From Acidimicrobiales bacterium (GTDB taxonomy: Bacteria > Actinomycetota > Acidimicrobiia > Acidimicrobiales > Palsa-688): DNA of 60,885 nt. The DNA is taken from positions 1 to 60,885 of the forward strand of contig JAFAWZ010000273.1 in assembly GCA_019241495.1 (NCBI GenBank). Reading direction: 5' to 3'. The notes beneath the pieces were generated by a model. It worked only from the letters and a program-made list of their open reading frames with translations, ran no database searches and was not told where the DNA came from. The position numbers were made by a program, and so were the translations under genes. Below are positions 395 through 10,680 of the stretch, piece after piece (within the stretch, counting starts at the first letter, position 1; every line of letters begins with the position of its first letter).

Positions 395-1195
395 TCAGGC
401 GTGGTACCAGGTATCCCGGAACGTCGACCCGGTCCCATCTAGACCAGACGGCTGGGCCTTGACCGCTCCTGTGCTGGTTACCATCGTGATGTCGTGGAGA
501 TCTCCGTCGGCGGCGAACGACGAGATGGAGCCGGTGCCGGTGGCGTCAGAGGCCTTCGCCCCAGAGAAGGTGACAGTCCCGAAATTCGTGAGGTTGGCCA
601 GGCTGCAGTAAAAAGCGTTGCAGAGCTCGGGCGCCTCGGCCACCCATTCTGCCGACGCGTCGGCGTCGGATCCGGTCTCGGCTTGGGAGAACTGCCACCC
701 CTCCGCGGGATCAGTCAACGACAGCGTGTAGGAGGTCCCCGAACGGGTCACAGCCGCGGTCAACGTGTCGCCCGCCCTCACCGGATAGGTATACCTGGAC
801 AGGCTCACTGAGGGTGCGGGGTACATCTCGAACCAGGCGTAGTAAGTGGGCGCACCTCGCGAGCAGTCCGAGTCGGTCCCGAGCTGCTCGACCGAGTTGG
901 ACGAGTAGCCGTCCAGGCCGACCCAGAACGAGGCGTAGGTCGAGCTTCTCCTGGAACAGCTGGCGGTCGGCACGGTCCAGCTACCCACCACCTTGGTGGC
1001 GTTCGTCGTGGAGACTGCGTAACCCGACCAGTTGGACGACTGCACGTTGTCGTCGAACACGCTCCTCGCGAGCATCGGGCGGTGGACGATCGACACGGTC
1101 GTGGCGGCCGCCCCTCCTGCCGCAGCTATGGCCTGGCCGCTGGGAATCAGAACCGTCAGTGCGCCGAGCAGAGCCGGCAAGGACCGTCGCTTCAT
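395..1195 (-). CDS. Secreted peptidase G1 (eqolisin / glutamic peptidase) family protein
   Basis: Signal peptide MKRRSLPALLGALTVLIPSGQAIAAAG. Family-like motifs SNWSGYAV, FWVGLDGY, VEQLGTD (candidate catalytic Gln) and AEWVAEAP (candidate catalytic Glu). I chose the ATG at 1195 over the longer ORF-track start at 1273. Confidence 0.7.
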   Translation of the reverse strand: MKRRSLPALLGALTVLIPSGQAIAAAGGAAATTVSIVHRPMLARSVFDDNVQSSNWSGYAVSTTNATKVVGSWTVPTASCSRRSSTYASFWVGLDGYSSNSVEQLGTDSDCSRGAPTYYAWFEMYPAPSVSLSRYTYPVRAGDTLTAAVTRSGTSYTLSLTDPAEGWQFSQAETGSDADASAEWVAEAPELCNAFYCSLANLTNFGTVTFSGAKASDATGTGSISSFAADGDLHDITMVTSTGAVKAQPSGLDGTGSTFRDTWYHA

Positions 1196-1598
1196 TTCTA
1201 AATAACCCCTTCCGACATAGCCCATGCGCGGCCGCCACCAGCACCGCTCGAGGAACGATATCTCACCCCCCAAGCGCGCTTCTAGAACTGCCCCGCCAGA
1301 AAGGTAGGGGCGGAGAAATCCACGAACAGCGTCTGGAACTACACGGATGCACTTACAAGGGCAGCAGTTCCCGCGCCCGGGCGGCCTGGCCAGTGACGTG
1401 GTCCTCCGGCGACCTCACCCGGCTCGAGAAACACGACGGCGAGCAGCATGACCCCGATCGCTCACTGTCGTCGCTGAAAGCCCACACGGACACGACGCTA
1501 GAGGCAACGTCCGACCGCTACTCGATGAATCCCCTTCGCGCATGAATCGCGCACGCCCCCCGGCACGCCACTTATCCACAGCCCCAGGAATGACAACA

Positions 1599-3334: not shown

Positions 3335-4331
3335 GCGCCCGGTCGTAGTCAGCGCCCTGAAACGCCGAGAGGGTCACTCCGGCGTCGGCCAACTCGTGCA
3401 GGAACGCCCCAGGCTCGCTGACTAGCTCGGCCAGGCCGGAGGCACCGGGTTGGCCGATGCGGCCCGTGGCGATCCAGCGCGCCGTCGTCGCGCTCACCGT
3501 CGCGGCCACCACGGCGGGCGCAGTCGCGGCGCCGAGGATCCGGGTGTCGGTCCGGGCCCCGATCCAGCCCCGCATCTCCACCCGTAACGCTCCGACCAGA
3601 CCCTCTGGGTGGGGCGACCGCAACATGGGCAACCAGGCGGTCACCCGGTCCCGGCGCGTGGCTTCGAGGCGGGAGGTGATCCGGCGGCATCCTGGGAAAG
3701 CGGGCACCAAGAGCAAGGGATCAGAGAGGGAGGCCCGGTAGCAATCGGCCCCGCCCACCGGCTCCGGGAACCACACCAGCTCCCGCCCCGAACCACCGGG
3801 CCGGCGGTGCCACTCCCCCTCGAGCCAGTCCAGGGCGACCCCGGTGAGAGCGCTGTGGTGGCGCCGGGCACAGGCCGGTCCCCCGGTGCCAAGGCTGGCA
3901 ACGTGGATCTCCTCCACCCGGTCGAACTCCGACCGAAGCCGGGCCGCCAGCACGCACGACAAACCCGGGGCCATGGTCGTGCCGACCGCCACGGTGAGCC
4001 CTCGGCTGCGGGCTCTGGCGTCGAGGCCGAGAAGAGCCCTCACTTCAGCCGGATCATCCACCGCGCACACCGCGTGGCTGCCCCGTTCCAAGGCCGCCCT
4101 GACTGCTCGTCGAGCACCGGAAGGGACGGCCGTGATCGTGACATCCGCGTCAACCGGGTCACCCGGCCCGCCCTGGCGCAGCTCGAACGGCCCACTCCAG
4201 GCCGCGATCTGATCGGCCACCCGTTTCGGGTCCCGGTGGACAACGGTGACCGACGTGAACACCGGGTCCGCAGCCAGGATGTGGGCGATCCGGCCGCCGA
4301 CAGCACCCATGCCGATGAGAGCAGCGCGCAC
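3288..4331 (-). CDS. saccharopine dehydrogenase-like NAD(P)-binding protein
   Basis: Rossmann N-terminus RAALIGMGAVGGRIAHIL. The overall layout resembles Sacchrp_dh_NADP proteins. GTG start. Confidence 0.7.
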   Translation of the reverse strand: MRAALIGMGAVGGRIAHILAADPVFTSVTVVHRDPKRVADQIAAWSGPFELRQGGPGDPVDADVTITAVPSGARRAVRAALERGSHAVCAVDDPAEVRALLGLDARARSRGLTVAVGTTMAPGLSCVLAARLRSEFDRVEEIHVASLGTGGPACARRHHSALTGVALDWLEGEWHRRPGGSGRELVWFPEPVGGADCYRASLSDPLLLVPAFPGCRRITSRLEATRRDRVTAWLPMLRSPHPEGLVGALRVEMRGWIGARTDTRILGAATAPAVVAATVSATTARWIATGRIGQPGASGLAELVSEPGAFLHELADAGVTLSAFQGADYDRAPTAGGTAGPSAPASP

Positions 4332-4337
4332 GGGCGG

Positions 4338-4475
4338 CTAGTGGAGCTCGTCGGGAGGTATCTCCCGCCAACCACCTCGTTGTGGAGGGGTGCCGCCCGA
4401 GCCGCGGAGGCGCACGATCCCGGCGATGATGGCGGTGGCTCCGAGGGCGACTAGGGCCCGGCGCAATGCTTTCAC
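4338..4475 (-). CDS. possible 45-aa membrane protein (VKALRRALVALGATAIIAGIVRL...)
   Basis: Hand-translated and below the ORF-track cutoff. One predicted TM helix. The stop lies 7 nt upstream of the next gene's start. Confidence 0.25.
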   Translation of the reverse strand: MKALRRALVALGATAIIAGIVRLRGSGGTPPQRGGWREIPPDELH

Positions 4476-4527
4476 AGCTGAACGATCCTAAGCGCCCGAG
4501 CCGAAACCTGATCGCCCGGGAGCCGGG

Positions 4528-5028
4528 CTACTTGCTGTCGGCCACGGCGAGACGGAACGCGTCGCTCGGCTGGCCATCGGGCGATGCTCCGGTCCACGTG
4601 ACCGTAAGCGAGGAGAACTGCGGGCCACCCGGGGTGCGCACCACTGTCGACAGGGCCAGGCCGGCGGGGGCCGCCGTGTCGTGCCCGGACACCTTGAGAT
4701 GGACCAGGCCCGTGCCCACCGCCCCGGTCGCAGTCCAGGAGGTCCATTTCGAACCGGTCACGACGGTGGTACCGACCCCGCATACCACGATGAGGGTGGA
4801 GGGCTCGTAGGCCCCGCCGCCGCAGTTGAACACGGTCGGGACCTGCCCGGCCACCGTGGTCGATGAAGCATTGGAGGAGCTCCCGGGAACCGGACCCGCC
4901 GCGGGCCGCGACGGCGGGCTCGTCACATGAGAACGGGTAGAGGTCGAACAGGCGCCCACCAGAACCGAGCCAGCCAGCACCGAGCCCATCAGCGCCAGGG
5001 GGGCCGCCCGCCTCGGCCAGCCGGTCAC
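4528..5028 (-). CDS. lipoprotein, last gene of the MauE-like operon
   Basis: Lipobox LVGAC after a hydrophobic signal sequence. The GTG at 5028 overlaps the upstream TGA (GTGA). The longer 322-aa ORF-track version overlaps the upstream gene and is Arg-rich. Confidence 0.6.
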   Translation of the reverse strand: MTGWPRRAAPLALMGSVLAGSVLVGACSTSTRSHVTSPPSRPAAGPVPGSSSNASSTTVAGQVPTVFNCGGGAYEPSTLIVVCGVGTTVVTGSKWTSWTATGAVGTGLVHLKVSGHDTAAPAGLALSTVVRTPGGPQFSSLTVTWTGASPDGQPSDAFRLAVADSK

Positions 5029-5798
5029 GCGTGCACCGCCACCCGGCGCCGGGCGGTCAGCGCACCGAGGGCGCCGGCCGCCCCGACCATGAGCCCGCCC
5101 AGCCACAGCGGAGGAACCGCCCCGGTCGCGGCCACCAGGAGCACGACGACCACGCCGGACTCTACACCGACTACTCCCCACCGCACGGCCGGCCCGAACG
5201 AGTCCAGGCGGGCGTGCAGCACCCGCAGCCCGGCCGGCGAGTCGGACCGGGCGGTCAGGAACACGGTCAGCCCCCGTGCCAGACCGAAGGAGATCCCGAC
5301 GACCAGGGCGCCGATCGGCGAAGTACTTAAGGCGGCCAGCACTAGGATCAGGGCGACGGACGCGGTCATCACGTAGGTGGCGAAGCCCACCCCGATCTGC
5401 CACCCGAACCCGGCCCCGTAGAGCCACGGTCGGTACTTCGCCAGCCAGCTGTCGTCCACCTGGCGGCGCACCACCGGTAGGGCCTCGCCGAAGCAACCCC
5501 CGTCGATGGCGACCGTCAATAGGGCCAGGCCGGCCCCGGCCGCCGCGATCACGTCACGAGGCGGTGCGATCACCGCCGCCACGGCGGCCAACCCGGAGGC
5601 CACGGCGCCCAACGTGATCCCGCCCGCCACGGCGCCGGCCACGAACCACGACGCGGTGGCGCAGTAGCGGTGGCGCCGGCTCCGCTCCCCGAACGGGGTG
5701 ATGCTCGACAACATCGACAGCCCGCACGGCGAGTACGTCGAGCGCGCCGCTCCGGCCGTCGCCGTGAGAACGCCGAGGAGCACCAGGAGGCCGGTCAC
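5025..5798 (-). CDS. polytopic membrane protein, CcdA/DsbD-like (putative transmembrane thiol-disulfide electron transfer)
   Basis: Multiple hydrophobic helices. Membrane-embedded Cys motifs YSPCGLSML and IDGGCFGE. GTGA overlap with the upstream gene. Confidence 0.55.
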   Translation of the reverse strand: MTGLLVLLGVLTATAGAARSTYSPCGLSMLSSITPFGERSRRHRYCATASWFVAGAVAGGITLGAVASGLAAVAAVIAPPRDVIAAAGAGLALLTVAIDGGCFGEALPVVRRQVDDSWLAKYRPWLYGAGFGWQIGVGFATYVMTASVALILVLAALSTSPIGALVVGISFGLARGLTVFLTARSDSPAGLRVLHARLDSFGPAVRWGVVGVESGVVVVLLVAATGAVPPLWLGGLMVGAAGALGALTARRRVAVHA

Positions 5799-7150
5799 GC
5801 CCCGGACCCGAGGAACACCGCGTCACCAAAGGTGAAGATCCCGCCGTCGGACGCCACCAACCAGTAGCCCTGCCCCGACGGCGTGGCCGCCATCCCCACG
5901 ATCGGCCGGGCCAGGCGGATCGCACCCAGGGAGCCGTGGAAGACGGCGTCGCCGAACGTGAAGATCCCGCCGTCGGACGCCACCAACCAGTAGCCCTGCC
6001 CCGACGGCGTGGCCGCCATCCCCACGATGGGTTGGGCGAGCGGCGACCCGCCCATCGAACCATGGAAGCCGGCGTCGCCGAAGGCGAATATCCCGCCGTC
6101 GGACGCCACCAGCCAGTAACCCGCCCCGCTCTTCGTGGCCGCCATCCCCACGACAGGCCGGGTCAGGCGGATGTTCCCCAGCGATCCCTCGAACGGAGCG
6201 TTGAAGTCGAACACCCCGCCGTCGGCGGCTACGAACCGGTAGCCGTCTGATTGGTCGTCGACGGACATGCCGACGATGGGCCGGTTGAGCCGGATGCTCC
6301 CGGTGGATCCCTCGAACGGGGCATCACCGAAGGCGAAGATGCCACCGTCGGCGGCTACGAGCCAGTAGCCCTTACCGTCGGGGGTCGATTCCATACCCAC
6401 AACCGGCTGGGCCAGAGCCACGCCGGCCAGGGAGCCGTACGTCACGGCGTCGCCAAAGATCTTGATCCCGCCGGCCTGGTCGACCAACCAGTAACCCTTA
6501 CCAGTGGCGGTGACCGCCATCCCGGCCACGTTGGAGCTGTAGGTCGTCGGACCGTCCTGGCAGGGGGCGAAGTGATTGGCGGTGGCGTCGTCGGTCTGGG
6601 CGACTGTGGAACAGGTGGCGTCGAGCAGCCAGGGGGCGGTGCAGGAGACCACCCGGCACGAGATCCGCCCGCTGCAGCCGATCTCCTGGTGACATTGCCC
6701 GTAGCGGAACTCGGTGCAACCCACGTGGCGGTTGCCGCATGCACCCAGGGCGCACTCGCAGCTGAGGTTGTCACAGCCGGGGCAGAAGTTGCCACCACCG
6801 CACCCGCAGCCCTGGCACTCGCCCATGCAGTCGATGTAGTACCGGGGGCCGGCGCAGTACTGGGAACCGTCGGCTTTCCACCAGCCGCCGGCGAAGGTAC
6901 CAGGCGGGCAGGCGTTGACCCCGTTGTTGATCGTGCAGCAGAACTGGGTGTAGCCGTCGCAGCACAGGTCCGTGCAGTTGCAGTTGTTACCTGCACATGA
7001 GCAGATGGCGCCGTACGCGGTGCCCGGGCGGGTGAGCAGCTCGACTGGAGCCACCGACAGGGCGGTCGCGGTCACGGTGGCCTTGGCGAGAAAACCCCGG
7101 CGCGATGTGCGGGACAGGAGAAAGCCTCCGATCTCTCCGGCGAGACTCAT
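5795..7150 (-). CDS. Tat-exported Cys-rich protein: MauA (methylamine dehydrogenase light chain)-like domain fused to six ~42-aa beta-propeller-type repeats
   Basis: Twin-arginine motif SRRGFLAKA. 26 Cys within about 165 aa, with NACPPGTFAGGWW...YYIDC resembling MauA NCPPGT..ASW..YRDCC. Six repeats of GYWLVASDGGIF.FGDA.F.GS.G...L..PIVGMA. The ATG at 7150 overlaps the MauE-like stop (ATGA). Confidence 0.8.
   Translation of the reverse strand: MSLAGEIGGFLLSRTSRRGFLAKATVTATALSVAPVELLTRPGTAYGAICSCAGNNCNCTDLCCDGYTQFCCTINNGVNACPPGTFAGGWWKADGSQYCAGPRYYIDCMGECQGCGCGGGNFCPGCDNLSCECALGACGNRHVGCTEFRYGQCHQEIGCSGRISCRVVSCTAPWLLDATCSTVAQTDDATANHFAPCQDGPTTYSSNVAGMAVTATGKGYWLVDQAGGIKIFGDAVTYGSLAGVALAQPVVGMESTPDGKGYWLVAADGGIFAFGDAPFEGSTGSIRLNRPIVGMSVDDQSDGYRFVAADGGVFDFNAPFEGSLGNIRLTRPVVGMAATKSGAGYWLVASDGGIFAFGDAGFHGSMGGSPLAQPIVGMAATPSGQGYWLVASDGGIFTFGDAVFHGSLGAIRLARPIVGMAATPSGQGYWLVASDGGIFTFGDAVFLGSGA
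5831..6027. repeat. Two perfect 71-nt direct repeats (5831-5901 and 5957-6027), 126-bp period, inside the propeller-repeat coding region
   Basis: Read directly: gtgaagatcccgccgtcggacgccaccaaccagtagccctgccccgacggcgtggccgccatccccacgat occurs twice. The period equals 42 codons, which is one blade. Confidence 0.9.
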
Positions 7151-7662
7151 GCGACCTCCCGGGCCAAGGGGTTGGTCCAGACCAGACAGGCCAACCCGGC
7201 AATGACCAAACTCATCAGGGCAAGCGGCAGCCCGTGCCAGGGTTGATGGACAAATAGAGAGCCCAGGTCGCGAGGCGCGCTCGCCGCCCACCACCCCGCC
7301 GCCGCGCACGCCCCGAGGTCGAGCGCAGCATGGTGGTGACCGGGCTCGGAGTCAGGACGGCCGAAGCAGCCGCACGACGACAACGGCCAGCCCCGCCATA
7401 CGGCCGTGATCACGAACATGGCAAACCCCGCGTACGAGACGCTCACCAGCGCTCCGGTCACGGCTCCAGGTGCAGTCAAGGCGGCTGCGCACACCACCAC
7501 CTCGGCCAGCGCGCCGAGGCGGACCGTGCCCCACCCGATCCGCCAACCCGCGGCGTGCAGGGCCCGGGCGGTGTCCGCGGGGCGCCACAGCTTGGCCAGT
7601 CCCGCCGCGCCCAGCACGACTGTGGCGGCGAGAAACGGGGCGGCAACGGGGGGAGCGGTCAC
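7147..7662 (-). CDS. MauE/DoxX-family redox-associated membrane protein
   Basis: Four hydrophobic helices and the family-typical SSCGCFG motif after the third helix. Confidence 0.75.
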   Translation of the reverse strand: MTAPPVAAPFLAATVVLGAAGLAKLWRPADTARALHAAGWRIGWGTVRLGALAEVVVCAAALTAPGAVTGALVSVSYAGFAMFVITAVWRGWPLSSCGCFGRPDSEPGHHHAALDLGACAAAGWWAASAPRDLGSLFVHQPWHGLPLALMSLVIAGLACLVWTNPLAREVA

Positions 7663-7669
7663 AGTCGGA

Positions 7670-8122
7670 TCACGGCATGGCGTCCACGTGGAAGGTGCCT
7701 ATGAGCTCGTTGGCCCGGGCGCTCGACACGACCCGGTTCGTCATCGATCCGATGACCGAGTACATGCAGAACGCCCTCCCTGCAACGGTGAAGAACCGCT
7801 GCACGCCGGCCTGGCCCCGTATGGTGCGTTGCAGCTGCCGGGGTCGGTACGAGTCCGGCGTCACTCCCGGTACCGCGGTGAGCGTCGTGAACAGCGGAGT
7901 GCCGGCCGCCTCGGGCCCGAACTCCAAGAAGCTGACGAAGACGTCGTCCGGTCCGAGCGCTTCGACCAACCCACTCCCGTAGTCGCCCCGTTGCGACGGT
8001 AGCGGGACGGTGGCCGCGTGCATGATGGGGTAGGTGCGCTCGCCCGCTGCAGCCTCCCGGCGGTAGATGGTCGCCTCCCAGCCAGGCGGAGGGGTGACGG
8101 CCAGCCCGGCGGCATTGATCAA
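7670..8122 (-). CDS. hypothetical protein (150 aa) inside the MauE-like operon
   Basis: Gaps of 7-8 nt to both neighbours. No recognisable motif. Confidence 0.55.
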   Translation of the reverse strand: MINAAGLAVTPPPGWEATIYRREAAAGERTYPIMHAATVPLPSQRGDYGSGLVEALGPDDVFVSFLEFGPEAAGTPLFTTLTAVPGVTPDSYRPRQLQRTIRGQAGVQRFFTVAGRAFCMYSVIGSMTNRVVSSARANELIGTFHVDAMP

Positions 8123-8130
8123 CCGGGAGG

Positions 8131-8883
8131 TCAGCCTCGACCCCCGGCGTCGGTCAACGAGGTCGGGTAGAGCCGGGGATCGCCGGGCTCGATGCCCGAC
8201 GCCCTCAGTTGGGCGTCGACCGCGTCGTCGCGGCGCTGGTCGGCCGCAGAGCGCTCATGCCAGCCGCGGGTGTGGGGTCTGGTGGCGCCGTCCGCAACCG
8301 CGTTGGAGACCAGCTGCTTGACCTCCTCCCATCCGGCCGCCACTCCCTCGCCGACGACTCGCCCGGCCGGGCCCGAGACGTACACGAAGTAAGGGGCGTA
8401 GGGGATGTCGTAGTACTCCCAGGCTTCTGAAGACATGACCACTGGGATCGACCCGGCCAGGGCGGCGATGGCCCCGGGGGATTCCGCCTCCCCACCTCGA
8501 GTCACCGTGACCAGGCGAGCGCCCCCGGGTACGTCGGGCGGGCCTGCTCTGAAGGCGTCCCAGAAACCCCGGCAGGTGCTGCAGCCCGAGGTCAAGAACG
8601 CGATCAGGGTGTCGTGACCGACACCGGTCACGGCCAGGCTGAGGGCATCCCCACCGGGGGTCGATCCGGTGAGGTCAACGACGTCGGTGGAACTCGGCCG
8701 GGCCGGGGTCGGCCGGACGCCGGGCGCGGCTACGGGCACCGAACCGGCTCCGCCGGACGGATCCAGCTCCACCCCGAGGCGGTGCAGAGCCCGCAGGACC
8801 TCGGCGTGACCACGTAGGAGACCAGCCACGAGCAGACCCAGCAGCCCAACCGCGACGGTCAGCCCCACCAGGAGCGCGACCAT
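8131..8883 (-). CDS. membrane-anchored thioredoxin-fold protein (TlpA/MauD-like thiol:disulfide oxidoreductase)
   Basis: N-terminal TM helix MVALLVGLTVAVGLLGLLVAGLL. The CxxC motif sits in a thioredoxin context (LIAFLTSGCSTCRGFW). Confidence 0.7.
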   Translation of the reverse strand: MVALLVGLTVAVGLLGLLVAGLLRGHAEVLRALHRLGVELDPSGGAGSVPVAAPGVRPTPARPSSTDVVDLTGSTPGGDALSLAVTGVGHDTLIAFLTSGCSTCRGFWDAFRAGPPDVPGGARLVTVTRGGEAESPGAIAALAGSIPVVMSSEAWEYYDIPYAPYFVYVSGPAGRVVGEGVAAGWEEVKQLVSNAVADGATRPHTRGWHERSAADQRRDDAVDAQLRASGIEPGDPRLYPTSLTDAGGRG

Positions 8884-8943
8884 CCCTCATTGATAGCAGG
8901 CCCGGCCGGTTCCGTCGTCGCGCACGGCTCCGATACCCAGGTC

Positions 8944-9261
8944 TCAGGCGCCATCAGGACCTCGATCAGCCCGTTCGCTACCTACGATCGAGCCATCCGA
9001 GAACAGGTACTCCTGCAAGTGACCCTCGAGCACAGCGTCGTGGCGGCGAAGCCATTCGAGCACCATGGAGGCGTGCTCTTGTTCCTCGTCGCGGTTGTGG
9101 ACCAGGATGGCGCGGAGCTCCGGGTCGGTGGTGGCGTCGATGCGCTGGTCGTACCAGTCGACGGCCTCCAACTCCTCGACAAGCGAAGCCACCGCCCGAT
9201 GACGGTCGATGGTCTCCGCTCGTAGTTTGGATTGGTCTTCGTGTAGCCCTTCGCTGCTCAC
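8944..9261 (-). CDS. encapsulated-ferritin (EncFtn) family ferritin-like protein
   Basis: Near-diagnostic stretch RHRAVASLVEELEAVDWYDQRIDATTDPELRAILVHNRDEEQEHASMVLEWLRR, recalled against Rhodospirillum rubrum EncFtn. The ExxH metal site EEQEH is present. Confidence 0.8.
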   Translation of the reverse strand: MSSEGLHEDQSKLRAETIDRHRAVASLVEELEAVDWYDQRIDATTDPELRAILVHNRDEEQEHASMVLEWLRRHDAVLEGHLQEYLFSDGSIVGSERADRGPDGA

Positions 9262-9303
9262 CGCCCGTTTATACCCACCCCGTGACGACCTCTTAGCCTA
9301 GAG

Positions 9304-10680
9304 GTGATGCCTTCAAGGGACCGGGACGACCTGTTCGAGGCGGCCCTGCGACAACGAATGGCGGAGCGGGCCCCGTTGGCGGCCCGCATGCGTCCCACCA
9401 AGCTCGGCGAGGTGGTGGGCCAGCGGCACCTGCTCGGCCCAGGCGGCCCTCTCCGGGCCCTGATCGAGACGGATCGGCTCTCGTCGATCGTGTTGTGGGG
9501 GCCGCCCGGTACGGGCAAGACCACCTTGGCCAGCGTCGTGGCCGCCCAGACCGACCGCGAGTTCGTGTCGTTGTCCGCGGTGAGCGCGGGGGTGAAGGAC
9601 GTGCGCGAGGTCCTCGAAGCCGCCCGGCGCCGGCTGGCCGAGGACGGTCGGGGGACCATCTTGTTCCTCGACGAGGTGCACCGGTTCAACAAGAGCCAGC
9701 AGGACGCCCTGCTACCCGGGGTGGAATCGGGCATCATCACCCTCATCGGAGCGACCACGGAGAACCCTTTCTTCGAGGTGAACGCCCCCCTTCTGAGCCG
9801 CTCGACGGTGTTCCGCCTGCACCCGTTGTCCGAGGAGGACCTGAGCGAGCTGGTGAACCGGGCGCTCGACCGCGAAGGGGCGACCATCAGCGATGCCGCC
9901 CTCACCCATCTTGTCGACATGGCGGGCGGCGACGCGAGAGCGGCTCTGACCACTCTGGAGATGGCTCTGGCCCTTGCTGAGCAAAAAGAGGTCGGGCTGG
10001 AGGACGTGGAACGGGCCCGTCAATCGCGCGTCCTGCCCTACGGCGAAGACGATCACTACGACGTCATCTCGGCGTTCATCAAGTCCATCCGGGGATCCGA
10101 TCCAGACGCCGGCCTGTACTGGCTGGCCCGGATGCTGCAGGCGGGGGAGGATGCCCGGTTCGTCGCCCGGCGCCTGGTGATCCTCGCTTCAGAGGATGTG
10201 GGCATGGCCGATCCTCTTGGCCTGGTCCTGGCCGACGCGGCGGCCCGGGCGGTCGAGTTCGTCGGATTGCCCGAGGCGGGCCTCAATCTGGCTCACGCGG
10301 TCGTGTACCTGGCCACCGCTCCGAAGTCCAACTCCGTGACGGCCGGACTCATCCGAGCGAACGAGGACGTCGCCCGCCGCCCGCCCGCCGCCGTGCCCGG
10401 CCCGCTCCGGTCGGTCCACCCCTACCAGCGCAACAAGCTCGAAGAAGGCGGGGACTATGTTTACCCGCACAACGATCCGAGCGGGTTCGTGCGCCAGGAG
10501 TACCGCCCGACCGAGATCGCCGGGGAGATGGGCACGGCGAGTCGACGCGTCTACTACCGGCCCTCGTCCCACGGCCTCGAAGCAGGAATCGAGGCTCGGC
10601 TCAGGGAGTGGTGGGGCGACGCCCCCTACGACGGGGAGAACTGGTGGGAATTCCAGAAGTTCGACGATCCGCGCCGGTGA
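9304..10680 (+). CDS. rarA: replication-associated recombination protein A (AAA+ ATPase RarA/MgsA)
   Basis: Walker A GPPGTGKTTLA, Walker B LFLDEVHRFNK, MgsA C-terminal helices (YDVISAFIKSIRGSDPDAGLYWLARM). Confidence 0.9.
   Translation: MMPSRDRDDLFEAALRQRMAERAPLAARMRPTKLGEVVGQRHLLGPGGPLRALIETDRLSSIVLWGPPGTGKTTLASVVAAQTDREFVSLSAVSAGVKDVREVLEAARRRLAEDGRGTILFLDEVHRFNKSQQDALLPGVESGIITLIGATTENPFFEVNAPLLSRSTVFRLHPLSEEDLSELVNRALDREGATISDAALTHLVDMAGGDARAALTTLEMALALAEQKEVGLEDVERARQSRVLPYGEDDHYDVISAFIKSIRGSDPDAGLYWLARMLQAGEDARFVARRLVILASEDVGMADPLGLVLADAAARAVEFVGLPEAGLNLAHAVVYLATAPKSNSVTAGLIRANEDVARRPPAAVPGPLRSVHPYQRNKLEEGGDYVYPHNDPSGFVRQEYRPTEIAGEMGTASRRVYYRPSSHGLEAGIEARLREWWGDAPYDGENWWEFQKFDDPRR

Follow-up and report, generated by a model that had tools for sequence, protein, structure and literature searches.

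A Tat-signal protein with a previously undescribed cysteine-rich domain and a predicted six-bladed propeller, encoded beside a MauE homologue in Acidimicrobiia

We describe here one gene and its neighbours in a 60,885-nucleotide stretch of DNA from an Acidimicrobiales bacterium (assembly GCA_019241495.1, contig JAFAWZ010000273.1, positions 1 to 60,885 of the forward strand), the whole of which is called the window below. The gene occupies positions 5795–7150 on the minus strand and encodes a 451-aa precursor that consists, according to its translation, of a twin-arginine translocation (Tat) signal, a Cys-rich domain and a repeat domain predicted to be a beta-propeller. As we interpret it, the locus encodes a Cys-rich exported client together with dedicated folding genes of the MauE/MauD type, and it is built from several uncharacterised protein families. 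Translation is taken to start with the ATG at 7150, which has the ribosome-binding sequence GGGAGG ahead of it, overlaps the stop of the upstream MauE-homologue gene as ATGA and coincides with the N-terminal start position of the homologues; for these reasons a longer open reading frame (ORF) starting at 7309 on the same strand was discarded. The stop codon lies at 5795–5797. An earlier interpretation made from the letters alone (the sequence-only reading) had given the coordinates of the gene correctly; its reading frame lies on the minus strand, and a plus-strand reading of 5795–7150 yields a nonsense translation. More than 90 full-length homologues with 50–82% identity were found in Acidimicrobiales. 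Searches of the protein in Pfam and NCBIfam returned only a Tat-signal match, a PDB sequence search with the whole protein gave nothing relevant, and a promoter and terminator scan of 4300–9400 detected no sites.

The Tat signal peptide comprises residues 1–47 (7010–7150, minus strand). Its twin-arginine motif TSRRGFLAK, which the sequence-only reading had already recognized, is found at residues 15–23 (positions 7082–7108), and all 94 homologues keep both R17 and R18. The TIGR01409 Tat-signal model scores 16.3 bits, just under its cutoff of 16.7. P42, A45 and Y46 of the signal region are nearly invariant in the homologues, and by the AxA rule the signal peptidase is likely to cut after residue 47, between AYG and the following alanine (the family consensus is AYA). 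Motif, arginine pair and cleavage site together support the assignment of the protein as a Tat substrate.

The Cys-rich domain, hereafter also called the head, covers residues 48–200 (6551–7009, minus strand), with a CPPGT motif at 6896–6910 and the pair W90-W91 at 6878–6883. The protein possesses exactly 26 cysteines, all within residues 50–197. This agrees with the number counted before, while the segment from AICSC to APCQDG is 153 aa long instead of the approximately 165 aa given at that time; the strings NACPPGTFAGGWW and YYIDCMGEC, quoted from the translation, are both present. No family in Pfam, NCBIfam or the PDB matches the domain, and a literature search on it found nothing; it is a new, previously undescribed family. 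Conservation and cysteine parity were assessed in 95 homologues, all pairs of which share less than 70% identity. W90 and W91 are conserved in all of them, D107 in 98%, and R103 and FRYG (148–151) in 98–100%. The number of cysteines lies between 16 and 28, and 88 of the 95 have an even number; 16 cysteine positions are nearly invariant, and the remaining ones occur in about half to four-fifths of the homologues. Such strict conservation indicates that the Cys-rich pattern is not due to chance. Because the cysteines follow this even pattern and a dedicated oxidase is encoded nearby (see below), all of them are probably paired as disulfides, with 13 pairs in this protein and eight to 14 across the family. 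A single Cys-Trp crosslink does not agree with this pattern, since it would leave an odd number of cysteines for disulfides. The invariant WW, R103, D107, FRYGQ and R166 suggest a specific binding or catalytic site in the head.

The neighbouring genes are arranged as a compact cassette. Five genes of the window, including that of the Cys-rich protein, are tightly packed or overlapping, with start/stop overlaps of the type ATGA or GTGA. To evaluate the linkage we searched 83 species-level loci, within 8 kb on either side of the Cys-domain gene, for relatives of the neighbour genes in the window. A CxxC thioredoxin-like gene was found in 70 loci, a gene for a 150-aa protein (p150) in 71, one for a polytopic membrane protein (mem257) in 61, and a MauE gene in at least 57, which is an undercount, as the MauE gene of one locus (L001) was detected by Pfam alone. 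The gene order is permuted among the loci, but the genes nearly always share the strand of the Cys-domain gene. None of the other gene families across the 83 loci occurs in more than 19 of them.

The gene directly upstream (7147–7662, minus strand) encodes a polytopic membrane protein of 171 aa that matches Pfam PF07291 (E = 6.6e-10; 39.8 bits, with the cutoff at 27) and carries the sequence SSCGCFG, hence the CXC-FG active-site motif; CGCFG is also present in L003. By this profile match the product is a true MauE homologue. The membrane-anchored thioredoxin-like protein (250 aa; 8131–8883, minus strand) is predicted to have an N-terminal transmembrane helix and, further on, a G-C-x-T-C sequence as its CxxC motif. 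G-C-x-x-C and P-x-F are invariant among its relatives, and a P-Y-F loop is located where the cis-proline would be expected. Its matches are weak and centred on the CxxC (StoA, 3erw, E = 0.15; Pfam Thioredoxin_2, _4 and _8, E = 0.02–0.2). The operon context that had been noted from the letters is hence borne out, as a true MauE homologue and a CxxC thioredoxin-like gene both stand alongside.

The two remaining cassette genes belong to families without annotation. p150 (7670–8122, minus strand) contains no hydrophobic segment, and so neither a signal peptide nor a transmembrane segment, and is characterized by an invariant RGD(Y/F)G.G motif. Pfam, NCBIfam and a profile search of the PDB gave no match to it; the approximately 1,887 clusters retrieved from the full database belong without exception to Acidimicrobiales and are annotated as hypothetical proteins. 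mem257 (5025–5798, minus strand) begins with a GTG that overlaps the TGA stop of the Cys-rich protein gene, as seen in the junction sequence. Its conserved motifs include WSPCG, RSTWSPCGLSMLS.ITP and HRRQV(N/D)E.WLD.(Y/F)R.WVYG.GFG.QIG, and it has one conserved cysteine. No Pfam or NCBIfam family matches it. The possibility that it is a CcdA/DsbD-like protein was considered and dropped as unsupported, because a Pfam search with seven members was empty.

Outside the cassette, a Peptidase_A4 family protein (395–1273, minus strand) and an MgsA/RarA-type AAA+ ATPase (9304–10680, plus strand) appear to be unrelated to it; the latter gene is divergent from the cassette and marks its upstream boundary. 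In L001, the locus of representative P0099, a flavin amine-oxidase-family gene (PF01593; 8425–9639, minus strand), on the strand opposite to the Cys-domain gene, is located roughly 1 kb downstream of it. No such gene appears in the Pfam annotation of L003, and with families outside the cassette reaching 19 of the 83 loci at most, its proximity is probably coincidental.

The C-terminal part of the protein (residues 206–451; 5798–6535, minus strand) is composed of six repeats of about 41 aa, each of which has a (P)IVGMA strand first, followed by GYWLV, GGIF.FG and A.F.GS. We built a full-length AlphaFold2 model from a 94-sequence alignment (mean predicted local distance difference test, pLDDT, 79.9). 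Residues 206–451 reach a pLDDT of approximately 90–97 in it, and DSSP assigns 18 strands to them, grouped as six times three. A Foldseek search of the PDB with this model gave 1,616 matches at E ≤ 0.001, of which the top 50 are all WD40- or YVTN-type propellers (E from about 4e-11 to 2e-8), the best including 1nr0, 7bie_A, 2ymu_A, 5yzv_A and 1l0q_A. The model hence supports a six-bladed beta-propeller, in agreement with the six propeller-type repeats that had been proposed earlier. Although the predicted fold is that of six- and seven-bladed WD40/YVTN propellers, the sequence of the repeats is unmatched: no Pfam repeat family passes its threshold (the best, VID27, has E = 0.021, below the cutoff), neither Pfam nor NCBIfam matches the unit GYWLVxxDGGxFxFGDA, and its match among PDB sequences is not significant (1l0q, E = 0.26). 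At the DNA level, the last three blades form a 126-bp tandem repeat at 5812–6171 (2.9 copies, 83% matches in Tandem Repeats Finder), which suggests a recent duplication or gene conversion inside the gene.

The repeat is also found well beyond this protein. A homology search for GYWLV(A/S)DGG(I/V)F.FGDA gave at least 8,000 candidates, and elsewhere the repeat is fused to GH18, PF16317, PQQ_2, or YkuD (L,D-transpeptidase) with PG_binding_1 (P0072 and P0101–P0109). In Acidimicrobiia it is apparently a frequent extracellular module that has so far gone undescribed.

Our survey of the family shows that the Cys-rich domain is the constant part of these proteins. A search of 1.84 billion representative proteins with a hidden Markov model (HMM) retrieved 491 clusters (50% identity) with the domain, and a scan of one genome per species detected at least 536 coding stretches; nearly all of the 80 loci kept from these stretches come from metagenome-assembled genomes of Acidimicrobiia. 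The domain is always N-terminal and behind a Tat signal, whatever C-terminal part follows. Among 114 representatives the C-terminal partners are LGFP (15), FG-GAP-type repeats (6), SLH (4), ricin lectin (2) and CWB2 (CW_binding_2; 2), and further options are tectonin, fn3 or nothing at all. The partner is therefore interchangeable. Because these partners are typical wall- or glycan-binding modules, we read the propeller, by analogy, as probably serving to target or anchor the protein rather than to assist the head in catalysis.

Two further arrangements were observed in the family. Two representatives (P0151 and one other) have, upstream of both the Tat signal and the Cys-rich domain, an in-frame MauE domain that contains CGCFG. 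Whether it is a true fusion or a merge of overlapping genes during gene calling, the arrangement strengthens the link between MauE and the Cys-rich domain. In six loci (L014, L015, L021, L034, L049 and L066), no accessory gene of the four lies within 8 kb of the Cys-domain gene; we presume that these orphan copies are additional paralogues and are served in trans from a cassette located at another place in the genome.

We favour, with moderate confidence, the explanation that the gene product is a modular protein exported by Tat and associated with the envelope, and that a MauE/thioredoxin pair of its own folds its disulfide-knot head oxidatively. The protein would be made within a translationally coupled five-gene cassette and probably loses its twin-arginine signal by cleavage after AYG/AYA. 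The family-specific head of about 155 aa, with all its cysteines disulfide-paired and with the invariant WW, R, D and FRYGQ, would be the conserved functional part, and the propeller one of many swappable modules that bind walls or glycans. MauE, with its CGC-FG site, is probably a quinone-linked thiol oxidase of the DsbB type, and the membrane-anchored CxxC protein would, like DsbA and MauD, hand disulfides on to the exported head or shuffle them. p150, presumed to be cytoplasmic, may hold the reduced precursor for Tat export, and mem257, which has one conserved cysteine, may help in redox reactions or docking.

Several observations weigh against this explanation. Tat normally exports folded proteins, and a domain with 13 disulfides cannot fold oxidatively in the cytoplasm, yet every member of the family keeps the Tat signal; the same paradox of oxidative folding and Tat-type export is presented by MauA, the light chain of methylamine dehydrogenase (MADH). 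The head is modelled with moderate confidence at best (pLDDT 60–83 in the full-length model and 50 when modelled by itself), which does not suffice to establish its fold, and its disulfide state is deduced from parity and context. The assignment of the CxxC protein to the thioredoxin fold is not statistically significant, E = 0.15 being the best value, and the roles given to p150 and mem257 are guesses, as neither has detectable relatives of established function. Moreover, the strictly invariant polar and aromatic residues of the head suggest a specific activity, which the explanation does not name.

A relationship of the head to MauA had been proposed in the sequence-only reading and was examined at several levels. 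For comparison we took a MauA sequence that agrees fully with PDB chain 1mg2_B; it shows the 12 cysteines and the motif pattern attributed to it earlier, along with W57, D76 and W108. PF02975 has no match at E ≤ 10 in the protein or in 29 diverse relatives, the Cys-domain profile finds no PDB chain at E ≤ 10, and BLASTP against MauA gives E = 0.1. With the HMMER filters off, real Cys-rich domains score no better than shuffled ones against the MauA HMM (mean −8.2 vs −6.0), and in the reverse direction, with the Cys-domain HMM on MauA, real sequences barely differ from shuffled ones. An hhalign comparison of the Cys-domain profile (the 95 sequences mentioned above) with a 43-sequence MauA profile aligned 22 columns at a probability of 13.5% (P = 0.002, score 25.2), placing DGYTQFCCTINNGVNACPPGTFAG opposite MauA residues 32–53 around CPPGT (DG..C.C..G...CPPGT). 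This score is higher than in all 200 column shuffles (mean 13.9, sd 2.9) and higher than in 99 of 100 block shuffles. By these comparisons a short collinear motif appears to be truly shared with MauA, but this is far from demonstrated homology; the homology of the domain to MauA is marginal at most. Measured against the significant profile similarity that the sequence-only reading itself had asked for, the assignment to MauA fails or is doubtful at best.

On this basis we weighed the possibility that the protein is a divergent MauA homologue with a Trp-derived quinone, in which the propeller takes the part of the MauB heavy chain and the whole represents a single-chain amine dehydrogenase, and we consider it very unlikely. 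It draws on the shared motif and on parallels with mau clusters, where a Cys-rich domain is likewise exported behind a long signal of the twin-arginine type and encoded beside MauE and a CxxC, MauD-like gene. Only a lenient alignment of low confidence sets MauA W57 near the W90/W91 pair and D76 at D107; the Trp pair proposed to take the place of the first tryptophan of tryptophan tryptophylquinone (TTQ) is present and invariant, and its equivalence to W57 is putative. In a Foldseek search with the domain-only model, which is too poor (pLDDT 50) to compare folds meaningfully, the MADH light chain 1mda_L takes rank 2, but with E = 5.8 and a probability of 0.05; the search with the full-length model is dominated by the propeller. 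As already suspected from the letters, the second TTQ tryptophan has no equivalent: W108 falls at G158, and W174, the only other Trp of the domain, is Tyr in 17 of the 95 homologues (18%). D65, aligned to the essential D32 of MauA, is 59% conserved. No plausible ORF of the 60.9-kb window contains a CxxCH motif, the Pfam annotation of L001–L003 includes no MauG, MauB or amicyanin, and the 83 loci share no additional conserved gene for a maturase or electron acceptor; hence neither the window nor the loci give any sign of TTQ machinery. The idea of a fused heavy chain is contradicted by the modularity of the family and is not supported, for the propeller is present in 35 of the 83 loci, in contrast to 57–71 for the accessory genes, other members have LGFP, SLH or nothing instead, and the propeller repeat also occurs joined to unrelated enzymes. 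Acidimicrobiia are not known as MADH methylotrophs. We give just as little credence to the more general possibility that the head belongs to the MauA superfamily as a very divergent member and carries a Trp-derived or other cross-linked redox cofactor on W90/W91, which would be made without MauG and perhaps with p150 or mem257.

Two other explanations concern the chemistry and the purpose of the head. Tat is the usual route for cofactor-loaded proteins, and the Tat signal is conserved throughout this very Cys-rich family irrespective of the C-terminal domain; the head might hence bind metal or Fe-S clusters, be loaded in the cytoplasm, exported folded and employed in extracytoplasmic electron transfer. 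We find this highly improbable: the ferredoxin-type spacing CxxCxxCxxxCP is missing, Pfam recognizes no Fe-S family, and no genes for redox partners are conserved nearby. The cysteine counts vary in steps of two, not four, and linkage to a DsbB-like oxidase and a thioredoxin-like protein suits disulfides, not clusters; because of this parity pattern and the dedicated oxidase, metal clusters do not fit. Alternatively, the protein may be a secreted, bacteriocin-like antagonistic or lytic factor with the knot head as its active part, C-terminal modules that target different walls, and p150 and/or mem257 as helpers in immunity or export. Such a factor would be compatible with the modular build of the family, in which one conserved head is combined with exchangeable modules of the wall-binding or lectin type, with the orphan copies outside the cassette in some genomes and with the two uncharacterised genes travelling along. 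We nevertheless judge it improbable, as the cassette is widespread and syntenic among species representatives of Acidimicrobiia (the at least 536 stretches above), which fits a housekeeping role in the envelope better, the head is highly conserved instead of diversifying, and Pfam and PDB profile searches reveal no similarity to a known toxin or lysin.

The oxidatively folded, envelope-associated protein that we favour resembles several known systems and departs from each of them. It has in common with the mau system the collinear motif DG-x-C-x-C...CPPGT...W...(Y)xDC, but the head contains 26 cysteines, of which 16 belong to the conserved core, MauA has 12, and no significant match in sequence, profile or fold connects the two; the second TTQ Trp, MauG, MauB and amicyanin are all missing. 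MauA docks on a separate seven-bladed heavy chain, whereas the head is fused to variable binding modules and, unlike MauA, is restricted to Acidimicrobiia. MauE enzymes of two phyla (Calditrichota and Thermodesulfobacteriota) complement E. coli dsbB, have an active site of CXC followed by a conserved F-G, and are reported to be general DsbB-like oxidases, proposed to act through a thioredoxin-like partner; MauA is found in only about 10% of the MauE-bearing species (Gonzalez et al., bioRxiv 10.64898/2026.03.05.709764), so that MauE mostly occurs without MauA, which argues further against the amine dehydrogenase. The homologue in the window shares the CXC-FG motif, the pairing with a putative member of the thioredoxin superfamily and the occurrence without MauA. 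In contrast to a stand-alone housekeeping enzyme, it shares a cassette with one specific substrate of extreme Cys content and with two more partners that are uncharacterised, and, unlike the tested enzymes, it is from Actinomycetota.

Candidate clusters for ribosomally made, post-translationally altered peptides (RiPPs) that decRiPPter detected in Streptomyces also hold mauE/mauD beside putative substrates outside the methylamine context (PMC7794033). Like the present locus they are actinobacterial and have MauE, with or without MauD, next to a putative substrate gene, a likeness of gene context; their candidate precursors are short peptides, and the product here is a modular Tat protein of 451 aa. 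The wall-anchored surface proteins of Gram-positive bacteria follow the same plan, with one conserved N-terminal domain and swappable LGFP, SLH, CW_binding_2, lectin or propeller modules; the head described here differs in being uniquely disulfide-rich, and the binding of its propeller to the wall is putative.

If the minority explanation involving a MauA-like head were true, tryptophylquinone-type cofactors would extend to a new phylum and to a route independent of MauG, and a new class of wall-anchored quinoproteins would exist in Actinomycetota. If instead the head is a disulfide-knot client, as we favour, the locus would represent a natural MauE/thioredoxin module for oxidative folding that is dedicated to one extremely disulfide-rich client in Actinomycetota. 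Such a dedicated case would be informative, because the general role of MauE in disulfide formation was first reported in the 2026 preprint. It would also raise the puzzle, as in MauA, of how a domain that can fold only oxidatively is exported by Tat. In either case, four uncharacterised protein families distributed throughout the Acidimicrobiia are now defined (the Cys-rich head, p150, mem257 and the GYWLV propeller repeat), in a class of bacteria that is abundant in soils, waters and activated sludge.

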